From a virus (taxonomy: Duplodnaviria > Caudoviricetes), in the IMG/VR virus record IMGVR_UViG_3300017777_001247, positions 1 to 33,359 of that record: a stretch of 33,359 nt of DNA; one strand, given 5' to 3'. Below, in pieces: positions 1 through 13,110 of the stretch (the stretch's first letter is position 1; each line of letters starts with the position of its first letter). The notes under the pieces were generated by a model. It saw nothing but the letters and a program-made list of their open reading frames with translations. It did not search any database and had not been told where the DNA came from. The position numbers and the translations under genes were made by a program.

Positions 1-642
1 GGTCAGCAAAGAGATTTGCTTGATAAACGTCTTGAGGAGCAAGGAAGAAGAAGAACTAATGAAGACCGTAAAAATGACAAAGAAGTAATGACAATGACTC
101 AAGGTGTAAGAAGCATTGAGAATTTGCAACGTCAATTACGTGACCCTGAAATTCGTACTGGATTAACTTCTAAGTTGGCTCCGTTGTTGCAAAAAATTAA
201 CTCTCTTCCAAATAAAGAAGATTTTGAATCGGCTATTTATAGAGAGCTTACCGGCAATGACAAGACAACACTGTTCTTAAAGGATGCGTTGTTAGAAACG
301 TATGCTATTGAGCGTGCGACTAAAGGTGGTCAACGCATAACTGTTCAAGATATGAAGATGGTTGGCCCTGTTCTTGACCCTACTAACTACAAGCCAGAGA
401 CTTACAACGCTTTGTTAGAGCAGCGCAGAAATGTTCTGTACAACAACTTGCAAGACATGGGATTAACTATTCCTGAAATTCAGGAAAGAGCCAAACAAAG
501 GGCATACGTTCCTTATGGCGGGGATACTTCTGCTCCAGCTAAAGAAATTAGTCCACAAGATAAGCAAGCATTAGATTGGGCAAACGCTAACCCTAAAGAC
601 CCAAGGTCAGCACAAATCAAAAAAAGGTTAGGAGTTCAATAA
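1..642 (+). CDS. C-terminal part of an internal virion (ejection) protein; probably continues the ORF starting at 32512
   Basis: Frame 1 is open from base 1 (GQQRDLLDKRLEEQ...), so the TTG at 16 is probably not the real start. The protein is helical and charged, and lies among ejection-type genes. Confidence 0.65.
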   Translation, partial: GQQRDLLDKRLEEQGRRRTNEDRKNDKEVMTMTQGVRSIENLQRQLRDPEIRTGLTSKLAPLLQKINSLPNKEDFESAIYRELTGNDKTTLFLKDALLETYAIERATKGGQRITVQDMKMVGPVLDPTNYKPETYNALLEQRRNVLYNNLQDMGLTIPEIQERAKQRAYVPYGGDTSAPAKEISPQDKQALDWANANPKDPRSAQIKKRLGVQ

Positions 643-4599: not shown

Positions 4600-4996
4600 T
4601 AAAGAAGTTCTTGACCCGCACGGCTATCCTATTGAGATGGATAGACCTGTTGTTTTTGATGAGGGAAAGCTAGACCCCCATACTGAACTTTCTATTACGG
4701 AAAGCGCGTCAGATTTAGGTTTGCCGGGAGAGGGTTTTTACAATGTTCCTTCTATTTATGAAGGAAAAATTTACAATCCTCAAGACCCAACTCACTACGA
4801 AACTATTAAAAATTACGCTCAGAAACAGGCGGCTCAAGGGTTTAGGTTTCCTAACTTTCCTTCCGTTGAAGAAGCTGAAAAAGCAGCACAGGCTAGAAGT
4901 GAATACTTTAATCAGGTCAAAGCAGAAATGCTTAGAGAAGCTGTTGAGAAACGTAGGCAAGAACTCATGCTTCAGATGATAAAGGGAACTAGGTAA
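4592..4996 (+). CDS. Hypothetical protein (134 aa)
   Basis: GGAGA RBS; overlaps or couples with both neighbours. Confidence 0.75.
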   Translation: MADKEVLDPHGYPIEMDRPVVFDEGKLDPHTELSITESASDLGLPGEGFYNVPSIYEGKIYNPQDPTHYETIKNYAQKQAAQGFRFPNFPSVEEAEKAAQARSEYFNQVKAEMLREAVEKRRQELMLQMIKGTR

Positions 4997-5369: not shown

Positions 5370-5723
5370 TCAGTCAAAGTCAGCGACTAAGTACCATTCG
5401 GTGATGTAGTCTTTAAAGGCGATTAGACCTTTACCAGATTCGGCATAACTGCCGTTTGGCAAAACCCGCCAGAAACGCTCTACACGCATCCCGTTCTCAG
5501 TATCTCCAGAAACAACCAAGACAGTGGTCTTAGGTAGCCTTGAAAGGGCTTTTAAGAGGATTTCTTGGCCTTTGCTTATCTTCTCACCGTCTCGTTTCCA
5601 TTCGCCAAACAGGAAGTGTCCTCGACGTTCTAAAACCATATCCAAGTTTGACGGCAACACCTTCCCAAGTAAACCTGACAGCTCCCCAAAATCAACATGG
5701 GGAGCATATTTGTCGCGCATCAT
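5370..5723 (-). CDS. Putative PD-(D/E)xK (VRR-NUC-like) nuclease-fold protein
   Basis: PSNLD...FLFGEWK.DG...S.GQ pattern; coupled to the upstream GT gene. Confidence 0.5.
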   Translation of the reverse strand: MMRDKYAPHVDFGELSGLLGKVLPSNLDMVLERRGHFLFGEWKRDGEKISKGQEILLKALSRLPKTTVLVVSGDTENGMRVERFWRVLPNGSYAESGKGLIAFKDYITEWYLVADFD

Positions 5724-6457
5724 GGTGTTTGCAACAACTGGCCTTCAAAAGCATACGTGCCAACGTGAGCTAACTTCACCCAAGGTGCTGCCCATACCGT
5801 TTTACCTATTTTGCGTGCTTTCTTACAAAAGTCGTAATCCTCAGAAAGCAAGATATTGGATTCTGGCTCTATCTGCGTAGCAAAGAACTCATTGATGGTT
5901 TCACCGTTATTGGGATTGCTCAAATCCAATACGTTATTTTTGTATGTCGGTACGTTGCCAATCAAATCCTCAAATACCTGACGTTTAATCAGCATAAAAC
6001 CAGTTCCACCGTTCCAAATCTCTACTGGCTGGTTAATTGGCACTGTTACTTCATTCTTATAATCCACCAGATTGACTACAAACGCCCCTGTATGGTGTTT
6101 TAGCTGGTCATCCGGTACACCGGCATTGATTGCATTACGAACGGTCTGCCAGTTGATTTCTTTCTTTGGATAGATGCCACAAATAATGTCTTTATCGGCT
6201 TCTAACATTGGAATAATGTCATTAGGATTGAAGTGAATATCCGCATCAATAAACATCATATGCGTAGCGTCAGACTTCAAAAAGTGACTAGCCAGTAAGT
6301 TTCTAGCCCGTTGAATCAACGATTCATTAAACAGGTAAGAATAGCTAAGATTGATATTGGCTTCCTTGCATAGAATTTGCAGTTTTAAAGAAGATTGCGC
6401 GTAAAAGCCATAGCACAAGCCGCCGTACATCGGTGTTGCTACAAAAATATGTTTCAT
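5720..6457 (-). CDS. GT-A fold glycosyltransferase-like protein (245 aa)
   Basis: IFVATPMY, RARN, FIDADI (DxD), GTGFMLIKR, LSEDYDFC and HVG motifs. Start placed at ATG 6457, behind an AGGGGAT RBS. Confidence 0.8.
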   Translation of the reverse strand: MKHIFVATPMYGGLCYGFYAQSSLKLQILCKEANINLSYSYLFNESLIQRARNLLASHFLKSDATHMMFIDADIHFNPNDIIPMLEADKDIICGIYPKKEINWQTVRNAINAGVPDDQLKHHTGAFVVNLVDYKNEVTVPINQPVEIWNGGTGFMLIKRQVFEDLIGNVPTYKNNVLDLSNPNNGETINEFFATQIEPESNILLSEDYDFCKKARKIGKTVWAAPWVKLAHVGTYAFEGQLLQTP

Positions 6458-6484: not shown

Positions 6485-6541
6485 GACCGAAACGTTGCCC
6501 AAGCGTTCCTAACCTGTCCTCAGAGGGACTCGCCTTCGGTC
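6485..6541 (-). ncRNA. Putative structured antisense sRNA presenting the seed AGGUUAGGAAC
   Basis: Closing stem 6485-6494/6531-6541 and inner hairpin 6516-6519/6526-6529. The unpaired seed at 6505-6515 is complementary to 8 early-gene leaders. Confidence 0.55.
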
Positions 6542-6909
6542 TGGCGGGGGTCTGGCAATTCTTCAATCAAAACCCGTATAAGGCCACCTTTGATTTGTTC
6601 TCCGCGAATCATCTCAATGTGGTCTACCTGAAAATCATCATCGAAAACCCCTGCGTCTTGAAGGCTGTCTAGGACTGCCTTAATCCGGTTGTCGATGTCA
6701 ATTTTCCTCTTATCTCTAGGGCGCAAAATCATTGTTATCTTCAACTTCTTGTCCCCAAATTTAGGAATGTTCTTTTCTATGATGTAGTCCTGAACGTCTG
6801 TTTTGAATTGCCGTCCATTTTTTGAGAGAACAGTTCTCCCTCGAAAGTTTCGCCAGTAGGTATTCATACTTGGCGGGAACGGCAACTCAAGCCATACGTG
6901 CATTACCAA
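6520..6909 (-). CDS. rusA: RusA-family Holliday junction resolvase
   Basis: LPFPPSMNTYWR, DIDNRIKAVLDSL and DDFQV catalytic Asp motifs. Confidence 0.93.
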   Translation of the reverse strand: MVMHVWLELPFPPSMNTYWRNFRGRTVLSKNGRQFKTDVQDYIIEKNIPKFGDKKLKITMILRPRDKRKIDIDNRIKAVLDSLQDAGVFDDDFQVDHIEMIRGEQIKGGLIRVLIEELPDPRQTEGESL

Positions 6910-8259: not shown

Positions 8260-9162
8260 TCACTTGAGTAAGAAGCGGCGAGAACCTGCCGTTTCCGAGA
8301 CAAACTTTTCGTAAAGGTCGGGTTGTTGGGCTTGGAATAACTTAGCGTCGAATCGTTTGCTGCCTTTGCTGTTTTTCCATGTTGCGAGAACTTTTCCATC
8401 GTAAGATACTAGCTCACTCGACCATTGCATATGGTTTTGCAAAGCTGTTAAAAGGTGTTCTTCCTTTTCTTCTAGCCGCTTGATTTCTTCCTTAATGAAC
8501 TTGAGTGCTTCGGCTGCTTTCTCAATGGGCTGTATGGCAACGATAGATGTCCCAGCGTCTTGAGAATAAATAAGTTTTGTCTGCTCCGTGTTCTCTGGCT
8601 CAAGTGGCTGTTTGGTAGCGACTGCACTCCAGAAACGTGCCATATCCTTAATAAGCGATTCCTTTTGGGCTTCAGAAATTGTAAATTCAAACGTCTCAAA
8701 ATTCTGGCCGCCAAAGAGGACAGCGAGTACAATTTTCTCAACATTGTGAACTGCCGCTTCGTGGATAATTTGCGCCATGTCTGCCGGAGGGATAATGTTC
8801 GCTTCCGAATCAAACTTGTTGCGAACCGCTGCGTTGTAGTTTTTGGCTTCCACCAGCGTTTTGCCGTCAGCAGAGATAAAATCGAAATGTGATTTGAGCC
8901 ACGTTTCTTTCGGATGTGTAAGTGCATAGTCAGCGTCCTTTAATTCAATCTGTAGCTTGTCCTGCGCCAGTCTGCCAATTGTTGGCTGCATTACATGACC
9001 CATTTGGACAGCTTCCACTTGAGACAGGTCTGGACGCTCTTTCAAGCCTAGCTTTTCAAGAACAGCTTCATTGCCCCTGCCGTTGGCTGCTTTCCTACTG
9101 TCACCGCTCCACCATGCGCTATTGCGTACCTCTGGCGCGAAATCGTTCTGGTCATTTGCCAT
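8260..9162 (-). CDS. YqaJ-like viral exonuclease (lambda Exo family)
   Basis: GH..Q, SHFD and LVEAKN nuclease motifs; C-terminal SKRFD...PDLYEKF...SRRF. Confidence 0.9.
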   Translation of the reverse strand: MANDQNDFAPEVRNSAWWSGDSRKAANGRGNEAVLEKLGLKERPDLSQVEAVQMGHVMQPTIGRLAQDKLQIELKDADYALTHPKETWLKSHFDFISADGKTLVEAKNYNAAVRNKFDSEANIIPPADMAQIIHEAAVHNVEKIVLAVLFGGQNFETFEFTISEAQKESLIKDMARFWSAVATKQPLEPENTEQTKLIYSQDAGTSIVAIQPIEKAAEALKFIKEEIKRLEEKEEHLLTALQNHMQWSSELVSYDGKVLATWKNSKGSKRFDAKLFQAQQPDLYEKFVSETAGSRRFLLK

Positions 9163-9374
9163 TATTTATCTCCACAAGTTAGGAATAGTAATTCTGCGAA
9201 TAATTTAATAATTTTGTCCTGCTTACCTACTTCTGCTTCCAACGTTGCTACTTGGTCACGCAACTGCATATTTTCACTAAATAAACTCTGTAAATTCTTG
9301 TTCTGTGTTGCTTCAAATGGCCTAAGTAGGTCTTCTACGCTTAGTGCCTTTAGGCTCTCTATTGGGGTGTTCAT
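9162..9374 (-). CDS. Hypothetical coiled-coil protein
   Basis: GGAGA RBS; heptad pattern; coupled to neighbours. Confidence 0.7.
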   Translation of the reverse strand: MNTPIESLKALSVEDLLRPFEATQNKNLQSLFSENMQLRDQVATLEAEVGKQDKIIKLFAELLFLTCGDK

Positions 9375-9616
9375 TGGGTTTCTCCACGGATGTTAGGAAA
9401 TAGTGTGTCTGGAAATAGCGCAGCAAGGTCATAGGTGACAGGCTCCATTGGTTCAAACAATAGTGCTTCGGTCTTACATAATTGGGAATCAAGACGCATA
9501 ACTGCTGCGGCTTCTGTGCGGACACCGCCTTCAACTAGGTCAATGCCAGTTATGGGGTTGTGACACTTACGGCCTTTGAGATACTTACAGTCAATGCAGA
9601 GCTTTGGTTCACTCAT
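9371..9616 (-). CDS. Hypothetical Cys-containing protein (CxxC)
   Basis: AAAGGGG RBS; first gene after the promoter at 9652-9680. Confidence 0.75.
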   Translation of the reverse strand: MSEPKLCIDCKYLKGRKCHNPITGIDLVEGGVRTEAAAVMRLDSQLCKTEALLFEPMEPVTYDLAALFPDTLFPNIRGETQ

Positions 9617-9680: not shown

Positions 9681-9710
9681 TATCTTTTTTCACCTCACTT
9701 TCTTTTAGTC

Positions 9711-9964
9711 ATAGCAAGGGCTACGTATAGGGATGATGATGAGTCATGCCGATACTTCAACCCATTGGTTGTCCGCATTAGTAATGCGTTCCGCTGCTTT
9801 ATTTATCGGGCGATGTTTCTCGTCATCCCTGACGCTCTCAATCAGCCTATTAGCCCGTTTATCGCTTGTGGCGGCACACTCGCGTACCCGTCCCCCTTAA
9901 TCAAGGTAAACCGCTTTTATCCCGTGCTGGCACAGTCAGGCCACTTGCTATCGTGCGGGGTACG
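9711..9964 (-). ncRNA. Putative large structured non-coding RNA with pseudoknot
   Basis: At least 9 complementary segment pairs, nested plus one crossing; no credible ORF; downstream of the promoter at 10092-10120. Confidence 0.6.
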
Positions 9965-9982
9965 GTAAACGCTTTGGGCAAT

Positions 9983-10085
9983 AAAAAAAGCCAGTTACAA
10001 CTGAGTCCGGTGATGGTTCCCCTCAATCGATGGGGAGACAGACTCATGTGTAACTGGCTTCTATTTATCGACCATCACGTCAACA
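9983..10085 (-). ncRNA. Leader/attenuator RNA (C4/CI-like architecture) ending in an intrinsic terminator
   Basis: Perfect 12-bp stem 9988-9999/10049-10060 followed by U7, with inner stems. The bulge ACCAUCAC is complementary to the 5' hairpin loop GUGAUG(GU). Confidence 0.65.
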
Positions 10086-10091
10086 AATGCG

Positions 10092-10120
10092 AATCTACGT
10101 GCGCGGGGGTGAATTGTCAA
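10092..10120 (-). promoter_or_regulatory. Strong sigma70-type promoter driving the non-coding region
   Basis: TTGACA-17 nt-TAGATT on the minus strand. Confidence 0.8.
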
Positions 10121-10230: not shown

Positions 10231-10462
10231 TTTTAGCTTTTTCTGCTTTGATTTCAGCAATAGGACGCCAACCGAACTTTCTCCAAGTGCGCGTGACATC
10301 AGTATTATTGGCAGGAATCCACTCTCGACCTTCTAAAATGCCTAAAGACGGACTAACAGAGCTTGCCAGTAATTCTACGTCTCTTATCGTCTCTAATCGT
10401 TTAAATACCCGATTCTGAACTTCTAGTTCAATATCAATCATTGCGTTTTTTAATTTACCCAT
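10220..10462 (-). CDS. Hypothetical phage protein (TDVxxTWRKFGW motif)
   Basis: AAAGGGG RBS; motif recurrent in phage early regions. Confidence 0.75.
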   Translation of the reverse strand: MGKLKNAMIDIELEVQNRVFKRLETIRDVELLASSVSPSLGILEGREWIPANNTDVTRTWRKFGWRPIAEIKAEKAKNAC

Positions 10463-10758: not shown

Positions 10759-10794
10759 AAAACCCCCATAAAACGATTAGGAACACCCATAGGC

Positions 10795-10846: not shown

Positions 10847-11031
10847 TAAACAGTTTTAAAATAATCAATCCATGCCCTAATAATGTCCCAATTAATGCCA
10901 ATGGTTGCATCATGGTTCTTTTTGATTAGCTGTAAAACTTGTCTAGCTTCATCATTGGTTAATGAATCGTCAACTTCTTGAACGTCAGTAAAGTGCCAAT
11001 GAATAGATATTTCATCAGATAATTGAATCAT
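10846..11031 (-). CDS. Conserved small phage protein (W...DV...L...EA..VL...HDA..GINW)
   Basis: Start at ATG 11031 behind GGGGATAACC. Confidence 0.75.
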   Translation of the reverse strand: MIQLSDEISIHWHFTDVQEVDDSLTNDEARQVLQLIKKNHDATIGINWDIIRAWIDYFKTV

Positions 11032-11046
11032 GGTTATCCCCAAAGG

Positions 11047-11133
11047 TTAGAAAGAAAGCAAAACAAAGAAAAACAAGTAAACAAGTGCAGCACCGATAAG
11101 ACCAGCAAAGTATTCAAAGAATGTTTCAGGCAT
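11047..11133 (-). CDS. 28-aa membrane peptide
   Basis: AAGGGG RBS; MPETFFEYFAGLIGAALVYLFFFVLLSF. Confidence 0.6.
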   Translation of the reverse strand: MPETFFEYFAGLIGAALVYLFFFVLLSF

Positions 11134-11372: not shown

Positions 11373-12023
11373 TCAATGAATTTTATAAGATACGTTTGCA
11401 ATCTCACGGTTCCAACAGTCTCGACAATCTAAGCACTTATTCTCTTGAGCTGGTGCTTTGCAAGTAAAGCTAACAGTACTGACAACAGTTGACGTATTGC
11501 CTGAATAGGCTGGTGCTTTACCGTCAACCATTGCACCTGACAAACGTACACATAAGTTTTTAGGAAAGTCTCCGAAAAGCTCTCGAAATTGATAAATAAG
11601 CTTTTTTTCTTTTGTTGGTAGCCAAAAGTTAACATCCGGCAATCTATCGGCAATTCGTGCAATGTCTAGCAAGTGCTGGAATGATTGCAAGTCACCGGCA
11701 TCATGCCAGCGAAAATAAGTCTCTTTTGAGCTTGAAATAAGCTTGACCATACTATCAACCCAAGAGATTGACGAAAGACCGTTAAATCGCTTTGTATGAG
11801 CTTGGGTGACACTTGGGTATTGATAGTTTGCTTTTAACGCATAACAACCAAAGCAAACCGAGCCTTCAATCTTTGCGAGCTTTGCGCCTACATTGCAGAG
11901 CTTTGCAGAAATACCATAAGACAAGCCCGGCATTTTTGAAGGTTTACCCAATGAACCTGCAATATCGTTGGCAAGCTTTTTGGATAGTTTTGAAGGTGGT
12001 ACTGCAAATAGAATAGTTTGCAC
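11373..12023 (-). CDS. GP88-family (radical-SAM-like, Fe-S) phage protein
   Basis: SKMPG, C-x13-CxxCYA, FRWHDAGD, FWLPTKE, P.NL.VRLS and C-terminal CxxCxxCW motifs. Confidence 0.8.
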   Translation of the reverse strand: MQTILFAVPPSKLSKKLANDIAGSLGKPSKMPGLSYGISAKLCNVGAKLAKIEGSVCFGCYALKANYQYPSVTQAHTKRFNGLSSISWVDSMVKLISSSKETYFRWHDAGDLQSFQHLLDIARIADRLPDVNFWLPTKEKKLIYQFRELFGDFPKNLCVRLSGAMVDGKAPAYSGNTSTVVSTVSFTCKAPAQENKCLDCRDCWNREIANVSYKIH

Positions 12024-12053: not shown

Positions 12054-12077
12054 GCCAGTTAAGCACTGGCAAGCTTT
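12054..12077. repeat. 24-bp direct repeat containing a hairpin (copy 2 at 12365-12388)
   Basis: GCCAGTTAAGCACTGGCAAGCTTT is identical in both copies; GCCAGT/ACTGGC stem. Confidence 0.9.
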
Positions 12078-12261: not shown

Positions 12262-12339
12262 TTAAATAAAAAGTGTTAAAACTTTAAGAAATGATAAAGA
12301 TAGAACTATTACGACAACAGTATCTATGATTGATTGCAT
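12262..12339 (-). CDS. 25-aa membrane peptide; not in the ORF track
   Basis: GGAGAG RBS; MQSIIDTVVVIVLSLSFLKVLTLFI. Confidence 0.6.
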   Translation of the reverse strand: MQSIIDTVVVIVLSLSFLKVLTLFI

Positions 12340-12364
12340 GGTGCTCTCCGAAAGGTTAGGAAAT

Positions 12365-12388
12365 GCCAGTTAAGCACTGGCAAGCTTT
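12365..12388. repeat. 24-bp direct repeat, copy 2
   Basis: Identical to 12054-12077. Confidence 0.9.
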
Positions 12389-12391
12389 TGA

Positions 12392-12544
12392 TTAGATACC
12401 AGCCCAACGATTAGCTTGAACCGTATCGACTAAGCGGTAAACAGTAGCGTGGAATTTTGTTTCACCGTGGCGGTATGACTTGCTGAAACGAAAGCCAGTT
12501 AATTTCAAGGCTGGAACTAGAACCGCTGCTGTAAGTTTTCTCAT
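12392..12544 (-). CDS. 50-aa basic protein, first early gene; not in the ORF track
   Basis: GGAG RBS; MRKLTAAVLVPALKLTGFRFSKSYRHG...; directly downstream of a consensus promoter. Confidence 0.7.
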   Translation of the reverse strand: MRKLTAAVLVPALKLTGFRFSKSYRHGETKFHATVYRLVDTVQANRWAGI

Positions 12545-12616: not shown

Positions 12617-13110
12617 CGGTAAATTATATTGTATTTATTTATTGAATACGTATAAACCATAGTATCTACATATCATAGTTACTATATATATATATAGTAA
12701 GGATATATCTATACATAATCTACTTATACTGTAAATGATATATATTAAGCATGCCTATTCTTTAAGCGGATAGGGTCAGTGATTGTTAACTCTCTCCCCG
12801 CTTGGATTTAACAATTGGCTTGGGGCATTGGGGCAGCATCAACTCTACGCATACACACTACTACTGGCAGTCTACTGGTCTACCACTGGCACTCATTGGG
12901 TATTGGGTAGGGGTAGACAGCTTGCATCTGATACCCAGTTCCTAGCTGGCTTTTCAATTGGTCTTCAAGGGCTTGGAGTGCGTGCCCCTTTCATCTTCCA
13001 CCCCAAAAAAAATATGTGTTTTTCTGTAGTTCTGATAATCTTTACTTGAATCGTTGTGATTCTCCTTCGGTGTTGGCTGCACATTGTTTCTCGCTTAGTG
13101 CAGTCATTTG

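Follow-up and report, generated by a model that had tools for sequence, protein, structure and literature searches.

On comparative grounds, the RNA element encoded at the end of rusA in this phage is a new RNA family with unusually strong evidence for pairing with early-gene leaders. In related phages the element and a short tag in these leaders vary in step, which makes it likely that the RNA pairs with the early-gene messages. Judging from sequence alone, it is probable that a two-armed antisense RNA, likely processed, pairs in trans with eight leaders and would block translation initiation as delayed feedback, where the sign (repression) and the purpose of the regulation would follow from geometry and analogy.

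The window, which is the whole stretch of DNA analysed here, is a virus record of 33,359 bases that is 94% complete. Its rightward genes encode head, tail and lysis functions. A single leftward operon (~12,600 to 5,370) starts with small early ORFs and a Gp88-family gene, and also holds RecE-like, RecT-like, SSB-like, rusA and glycosyltransferase-like genes. This operon is headed by a sigma-70-type promoter (12616-12589, minus strand; 12/12, a consensus match only), and the first leader motif lies downstream of it. A weaker promoter-like site (9680-9652, minus strand) is found 5' of the gene starting at 9616, with a 9/12 consensus match, a class that is not commoner in the window than in shuffles. 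Between the divergent early and late regions there is a very AT-rich TA-repeat stretch (12620-12760), which recurs in relatives. Scans of 48 and 27 window proteins (PHROGs, Pfam) gave no match to an integrase, repressor, antirepressor or replication initiator, with unannotated small ORFs beyond the protein scan for repressor, antirepressor and integrase. The same scans (Pfam, PHROGs) also gave no DNA-binding regulator, and the annotation of the complete circular relative MW202753 contains no integrase, repressor, antirepressor or replication initiator.

Elsewhere in the early region (9690-10120, minus strand), a promoter-like site (10120-10092) is followed by a nearly perfect hairpin of ~100 nt (10074-9975) with a U-run at its end, and then by ~300 nt of structured, ORF-poor sequence (z = -4.8). 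This region has blastn matches in 80 fetched loci, which overlap. Since a replication initiator was not found, it could represent an origin/primer RNA or a second non-coding RNA. The early region of one relative (L078, 1769-1888, plus strand) includes a Betaproteobacteria-1 RNA (RF02932, 96 bits), a hint of a betaproteobacterial host.

The element near rusA lies on the minus strand and is predicted to extend over ~80 nt, from about 6554 to 6473, longer than the 6485-6541 assigned to it in the first-pass annotation. A model whose training set included the window sequence matches it at 6553-6471 with 89 bits. The helices are ordered a-b-a'-c-seed-d-e-d'-b'-e'. A C-rich 5' arm (6554-6546), predicted to pair with the Shine-Dalgarno or spacer of the targets, leads into helix a (6546-6543 with 6534-6531; 99.1% of cells paired, both-side changes in 4/4 pairs), which forms the 5' pseudoknot, with the 5' strand of helix b sitting inside its loop. 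Helix b is a long-range stem (6541-6535 with 6491-6485; 97.1% paired, both-side changes in 7/7 pairs) on which RNAalifold agrees. Both this stem and the GUCC/GGAC hairpin c (6529-6516; 100% paired, both-side changes in 3/4 pairs) had been recognized in the first reading of the sequence, and the loop of hairpin c contains the rusA stop codon. The seed, AGGUUAGGA(AC) at 6515-6505, is complementary to the leader motif. It had been described as the unpaired stretch AGGUUAGGAAC; the seed is indeed at this position on the minus strand, and its last 2-3 nt form helix d, leaving ~9 nt free (6515-6507). Helix d (6506-6504 with 6494-6492; 81.0% paired, both-side changes in 3/4 pairs) and helix e (6500-6497 with 6483-6480; 91.7% paired, both-side changes in 3/5 pairs) make up the 3' pseudoknot, the helices of which are longer in divergent copies. 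The simple stem originally proposed gives way to this fold, as it lacked the two pseudoknot helices (6546-6543/6534-6531 and 6500-6497/6483-6480). There is no terminal stem at the 5' end of the element that closes both ends.

The fold was drawn by eye on 54 distinct copies, and 94.1% of 1278 cells are paired in its five helices, compared with 75.9% in shuffles and 30-45% with slid partners, a control that favours the drawn fold because the fold was derived from the same sequences. Compensatory (both-side) changes occur in 20 of the 24 pairs. Unaided, RNAalifold recovered 13 pairs of helices b, c and d, 12 of them compensatory. G-U cells outnumber A-C cells at paired positions (51 vs 5), indicating that the folded strand is the transcribed strand. 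A sequence-free descriptor, used throughout in its scored form (an earlier loose descriptor was discarded as too noisy), ranked the element as the best match in the window with a score of 63, and five shuffled windows contained no match at 50 or more. Single-sequence folding gave results that shift between windows and missed the pseudoknots. The window element had no Rfam match at gathering score or at E up to 10, nor did copies in the loci of seven relatives at E up to 1.

The location at the end of rusA, a Holliday junction resolvase gene (6520-6909, minus strand; phrog_34, PF05866), holds as first noted, and rusA reads into the element, its final codons overlapping the RNA and its stop lying at 6522-6520. 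The upstream frame stops inside the element in 74 of 76 distinct copies, 32 times in the 5' half and 42 times at the UAG of the seed (one with only a 23-codon frame), after removal of one false pattern match (L223) that was also left out of the leader-core counts. A ribosome terminating there would unfold the RNA, so that a 3' fragment released by processing is likely the active form. We found neither a promoter-like nor a terminator-like site of its own at the element; presumably the AU-rich stretches on both of its sides would suit RNase E, going by the consensus of that enzyme. The peptide tail that overlaps the element is not conserved. Peptide constraint as the cause of conservation was rejected, given that the overlapping tail varies and that one copy is in another frame.

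In seven of 80 loci an intact RNA lies 871-898 nt past rusA, behind an inserted ORF that we take to be methylase-like from its N-terminal motif. Such copies were considered as coding-free examples of the RNA and rejected, as the inserted ORF also reads into it. In L019 (3303-4226, plus strand) a second, 287-aa open frame overlaps nearly all of the inserted ORF and is also open at the start in L018 and L020-L024. The gene 3' of the element in the window, glycosyltransferase-like (5723-6457, minus strand), has a weak motif-like stretch in its leader (6478-6473). The identity of this downstream gene differs among relatives, and both neighbours vary while the element stays.

The window has eight exact matches to the motif TTCCTAAC, where 1.16 are expected and none of 100 shuffles reaches eight. 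Six are on the minus strand, in the leaders of genes starting at 12544, 12339, 12023, 9616, 9374 and 9162, and the two on the plus strand are the seed itself and a match at 4848. The leaders of 11031 and 10758 carry the motif with one C-to-U change. On the minus strand, the target motifs precede a 50-aa ORF starting at 12544 (12568-12559; seed duplex -14.7 kcal/mol), a 25-aa hydrophobic ORF starting at 12339 (12362-12353), the Gp88-family gene starting at 12023 (12042-12035) and ORFs starting at 11031 (11053-11044), 10758 (10784-10775), 9616 (9641-9633) and 9374 (9399-9392), as well as the RecE/YqaJ-like exonuclease gene starting at 9162 (9185-9176). All eight end 11-17 nt 5' of early-gene starts. 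The three variants singled out earlier (10775-10784, 11044-11053 and 9176-9185) do form 10 contiguous pairs with one G-U each. Pairing extends over 8 bp in the leaders of 12023 and 9374 and over 9 bp in that of 9616, and therefore 10 bp is not general. Seed duplexes with the eight tagged leaders range from -10.6 to -14.7 kcal/mol, and those with nine untagged operon leaders from -1.1 to -6.7; the nine include one misplaced start (8216; likely start 8198), and the leader of the likely start also has no tag.

A small hairpin occurs twice, each time directly 5' of a tagged leader (12054-12070 and 12364-12382). In the late region, a near copy of the seed (625-634, plus strand) serves as the Shine-Dalgarno of a 702-aa late gene at 642; the seed itself is accordingly Shine-Dalgarno-like.

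Among the 80 nearest RusA loci, 78 carry the element, 76 identified by pattern and two (L074 and L075) by the sequence-free descriptor; neither pattern nor descriptor found it in L073 and L080. Some copies with almost no sequence likeness keep the topology (L074, L318, L392, L401 and L438, by descriptor). The descriptor matched in 49 of 80 metagenome loci, one of which duplicates the window, and in one of 38 more distant RusA loci of other phage types; eight of these 38 were inspected and none has a repeated tag. Locus L377, which equals the window in length and RNA sequence, was not treated as an independent case. In isolated phages blastn found no copy of the RNA, and Methylophilales phage MEP301 and two other GenBank records gave no model match.

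The association of tag and RNA has exceptions. Two leaders are tagged in the complete genome L073, where an HNH gene occupies the place that the RNA has in relatives; the RNA was not found in this genome in a scan covering all but the last ~450 nt, with a model that also missed the divergent L074 copy. L389 is similar, with tagged leaders and no RNA found. In the L254 clade the RNA is present and the leader sites offer only 6-7 bp with a mismatched flank, and in L401 the seed GUUAUG has one mismatch with the single visible tag, a CCUAAC downstream. Another relative (L216, MW202825.1), with a capsid protein 89% identical, has neither RNA nor tag; several leaders of its early operon share a different motif, which is AU-rich and for which an antisense partner was looked for and not found. 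In the unrelated phage L080 a different structured element, with a long closing stem and a possible pseudoknot, lies 3' of rusA (10330-10430, plus strand).

The first-pass annotation had proposed covariation of seed and leader motif in relatives as a test, and the two do vary in step in several lineages, one case being a switch in the core from G-C to A-U. In the clade with a GAUUAGG seed (11 loci, RecE 61% identical), 14 of 15 leaders have CCUAAU, one has CCUAAA and none has CCUAAC. The leaders of 265 loci with a GUUAGG seed have CCUAAC (195), CCUAAU (23), CCUAAA (44) or CCUAAG (12). The 10758 leader of the window reads CCUAAUC, which is fixed in the GAUUAGG clade, and represents the G-U intermediate in the GUUAGG-to-GAUUAGG switch.

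The bases that flank the core follow the seed as well. At the 5' flank of CCUAAC, a seed A (GGA) goes with a target U in 72/74 and 52/55 distinct sites, and a seed U (GGU) with a target A in 17/19. Neither the flank nor the core counts are independent, as the informative switches amount to about five lineage events. One base further 5', a seed C (GGAC) is matched by a target G in 9/9 sites of the L078 clade and in 1/7 of the L047 clade. At the 3' flank, a seed G faces C or U in 57 of 74 sites, a seed A faces U in 31 of 55 and a seed U faces A or G in 10 of 13. Only 4/13 sites of the UGUUAGGAAG clade fit at the first 5' flank base, but the bases concerned are part of helix d. Nine changes are needed for the seed-flank classes on a quick RecE tree with 83 rows. 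A prediction set beforehand held in two loci: L370 (seed AGCGUUAGGA) has CCUAACGC and CCUAACGA, the latter leader having already been seen before the prediction, and L393 (seed UAGUUAGGAC) has UGUCCUAACUA.

The complement of each phage's own seed occurs up to 7 kb upstream in 134 distinct sense contexts vs three antisense, and elsewhere in 11 sense and seven antisense contexts. Transitions that are G-U-compatible fall 25:16 in leaders, and mismatch transitions 1:6 (p = 0.04, from contexts that are related). In 15 leaders there is a variant with an additional A, which a duplex would accommodate as a bulge. Covariation, G-U tolerance and the 134:3 orientation support the earlier suggestion of RNA-RNA rather than protein-DNA recognition.

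A second, 5' arm had been missed in the original pairing scheme, which had the seed right and overlooked pairing over the Shine-Dalgarno. Based on sequence comparison, this arm follows the Shine-Dalgarno or spacer of its targets in the majority of clades. Most clades have CCCCC, CCUCC or ACUCC 5' of helix a. A GGGG Shine-Dalgarno is found in 75 of 148 targets of C-only arms, whereas 27 of 127 late genes in these phages and two of 31 targets of U-containing arms have one. When arms and targets are crossed, the cognate arm is best for ACUCC and CCUCC targets, and the arms are about equal on CCCCC targets. In L250 the arm is UGUGUGCC / UGUUGUGUGCC, and its three best partners among 13 leaders are the three tagged ones (-16.1, -10.3 and -9.4); only one of 1841 background leaders reaches -14 and 39 reach -10. 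The arm of L279 places two tagged leaders first of 17, the best of which precedes an ArdC anti-restriction gene, and does not pair with two other tagged leaders. As the window's 5' arm pairs with four of eight targets and the L074/L392/L393/L401 group lacks it, we regard the arm as the helper and the seed as the constant part.

These features suggest the following sequence of events. The RNA would likely be transcribed within the leftward early operon. Ribosomes finishing rusA would, as seen from the sequence, enter its 5' half, and thus the RNA would fold only after release or when untranslated, release presumably being carried out by a host endonuclease. The two pseudoknots would then produce a compact RNA with both ends protected and a seed of 7-10 nt displayed. 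This seed would pair with (U)UCCUAAC directly 5' of the Shine-Dalgarno, as the covariation supports, and in most lineages the 5' arm would also pair with the Shine-Dalgarno or spacer, which would put a clamp on either side of the ribosome entry site. Encoded at the far end of the same operon and hence building up late, the RNA would accumulate after the early proteins and feed back negatively, with a delay, on the RecE-like gene as well as the small early genes. With a slight leaning in its favour, we further propose that the double-pseudoknot scaffold represents an undescribed family of re-programmable two-armed clamps, released from the end of a translated gene, that silence an early regulon without a phage regulatory protein and in which both arms are retargeted together with all targets.

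The same pairing could have immunity or superinfection exclusion as its main role, silencing the early genes of incoming kin or holding a carrier state. C4 and CI act like that in the available parts of PMC5320573 and PMC4825925, clades with different seeds could be heteroimmune groups, and the window protein scans found no protein repressor for the job. We consider this role unlikely, given that integrase and repressor were found neither in the window nor in the complete circular relative, that neither a RusA relative nor the RNA pattern was found in the species-genome collection, and that the seed core is the same in most lineages, where we would expect an arms race to diversify it. A little less likely again is an activating RNA, whose seed would free a Shine-Dalgarno that the UUCCU half of the tag weakly pairs. 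The tag is anti-Shine-Dalgarno-like, the eight leaders have a predicted Shine-Dalgarno accessibility of no more than 0.46-0.74, and clades without the 5' arm would have only the upstream site bound. However, untagged leaders are not more accessible (0.11-0.76), the 5' arm covaries with the Shine-Dalgarno/spacer itself, which would block the Shine-Dalgarno, and the RNA arises after its targets in the operon.

It seems very improbable that a protein binding DNA or RNA recognizes the motif and that the inverted copy of the motif in the element is an extra site or a coincidence. Drifting specificity of a protein would likewise shift all sites together, and L073 and L389 retain sites where the RNA was not found; yet the strand bias, the G-U tolerance and the extra-A variant argue against such a site, the only conserved inverted copy lies in the single-stranded linker of a covarying pseudoknotted RNA, and the protein scans gave no regulator to bind it. 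A structure acting only in cis, in processing, stability or translational coupling between rusA and the next gene, would fit the upstream frames that stop inside nearly all copies, the tag often carried by the next gene directly behind the element, and the lack of a promoter or terminator at the element. It would leave unexplained the covariation with leaders 2.6-6 kb upstream and the persistence of the element between neighbours that both vary, and we give it scarcely any weight.

The two-armed antisense RNA that we prefer is a candidate answer to how small phages without their own repressor, sigma factor or polymerase turn early genes off. It also makes unexplained start-associated repeats of other phages worth searching for antisense partners. 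Natural compensatory seed/leader pairs are at hand for rescue tests, with one RNA and eight tagged leaders, and a compact synthetic switch for translation could be built on the 80-nt scaffold, whose two arms are exchangeable. A description of this RNA was not found in the literature searched, which covers few subscription journals. It may be among the 10,006 unnamed candidates of PMC10690425, although the searchable part of the supplements contains none of the four seed strings tried.

Several known systems share features with the element. Host multi-target sRNAs such as GcvB repress many leaders with one conserved seed, bound upstream of the Shine-Dalgarno; they are host-encoded, have their own promoter and terminator, and need Hfq. 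Unlike these, the element is phage-encoded, overlaps the end of an ORF, is pseudoknotted and would target the phage's own genes, and, unlike Hfq-dependent sRNAs, no promoter-like or terminator-like site was found at it. It also differs from double-pseudoknot self-cleaving ribozymes (HDV-like and others) in having no Rfam match, and we take its helix order, a-b-a'-c-d-e-d'-b'-e', to be distinct from that of HDV.

The start-associated sequence (SAS) of cluster K mycobacteriophages is a repeat, oriented and asymmetric, found where a subset of genes begins, a 13-bp purine-rich motif that includes the Shine-Dalgarno and for which the available part of PMC3203893 leaves open an RNA or protein partner and mentions no complementary RNA. 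The leader motif resembles it as an oriented repeat at gene starts, but is pyrimidine-rich, lies 5' of the Shine-Dalgarno and is matched by an antisense partner that covaries with it. The CI RNA of P4, as far as PMC4825925 was available, is processed from the transcript that it controls and pairs with two flanking sites, leading to premature termination. Pairing with separate complementary sites of the phage's own operon would be common to both; in the element, the sites are many gene leaders up to 6 kb away (the next gene is often tagged too) and the fold differs.

The closest likeness in action is to C4 of P1/P7 (RF01695; also listed in the available part of PMC2864571), described in the part of PMC5320573 at hand as a ~77-nt RNA cut by RNase P from a longer transcript at the P1 stem, with three stem-loops, a b' region that partly covers the ribosome-binding site and an a' region that binds upstream for specificity. 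C4 blocks translation (PMC12197685, available part). Both RNAs have two arms, an upstream specificity seed and an arm at the ribosome-binding site, the latter missing in one group of the element's copies. In contrast to the three stem-loops (P1-P3) of C4, the element has five helices with two covarying pseudoknots, and it has no RF01695 match at gathering score or at E up to 10. Whereas C4 controls an antirepressor message for lysogenic immunity, the element has eight tagged leaders in a context where no repressor or integrase was found. The element would work like C4 but differs from it in fold, model match and context. With a fold that Rfam does not contain, it would widen the C4/CI principle from a single target to a regulon.
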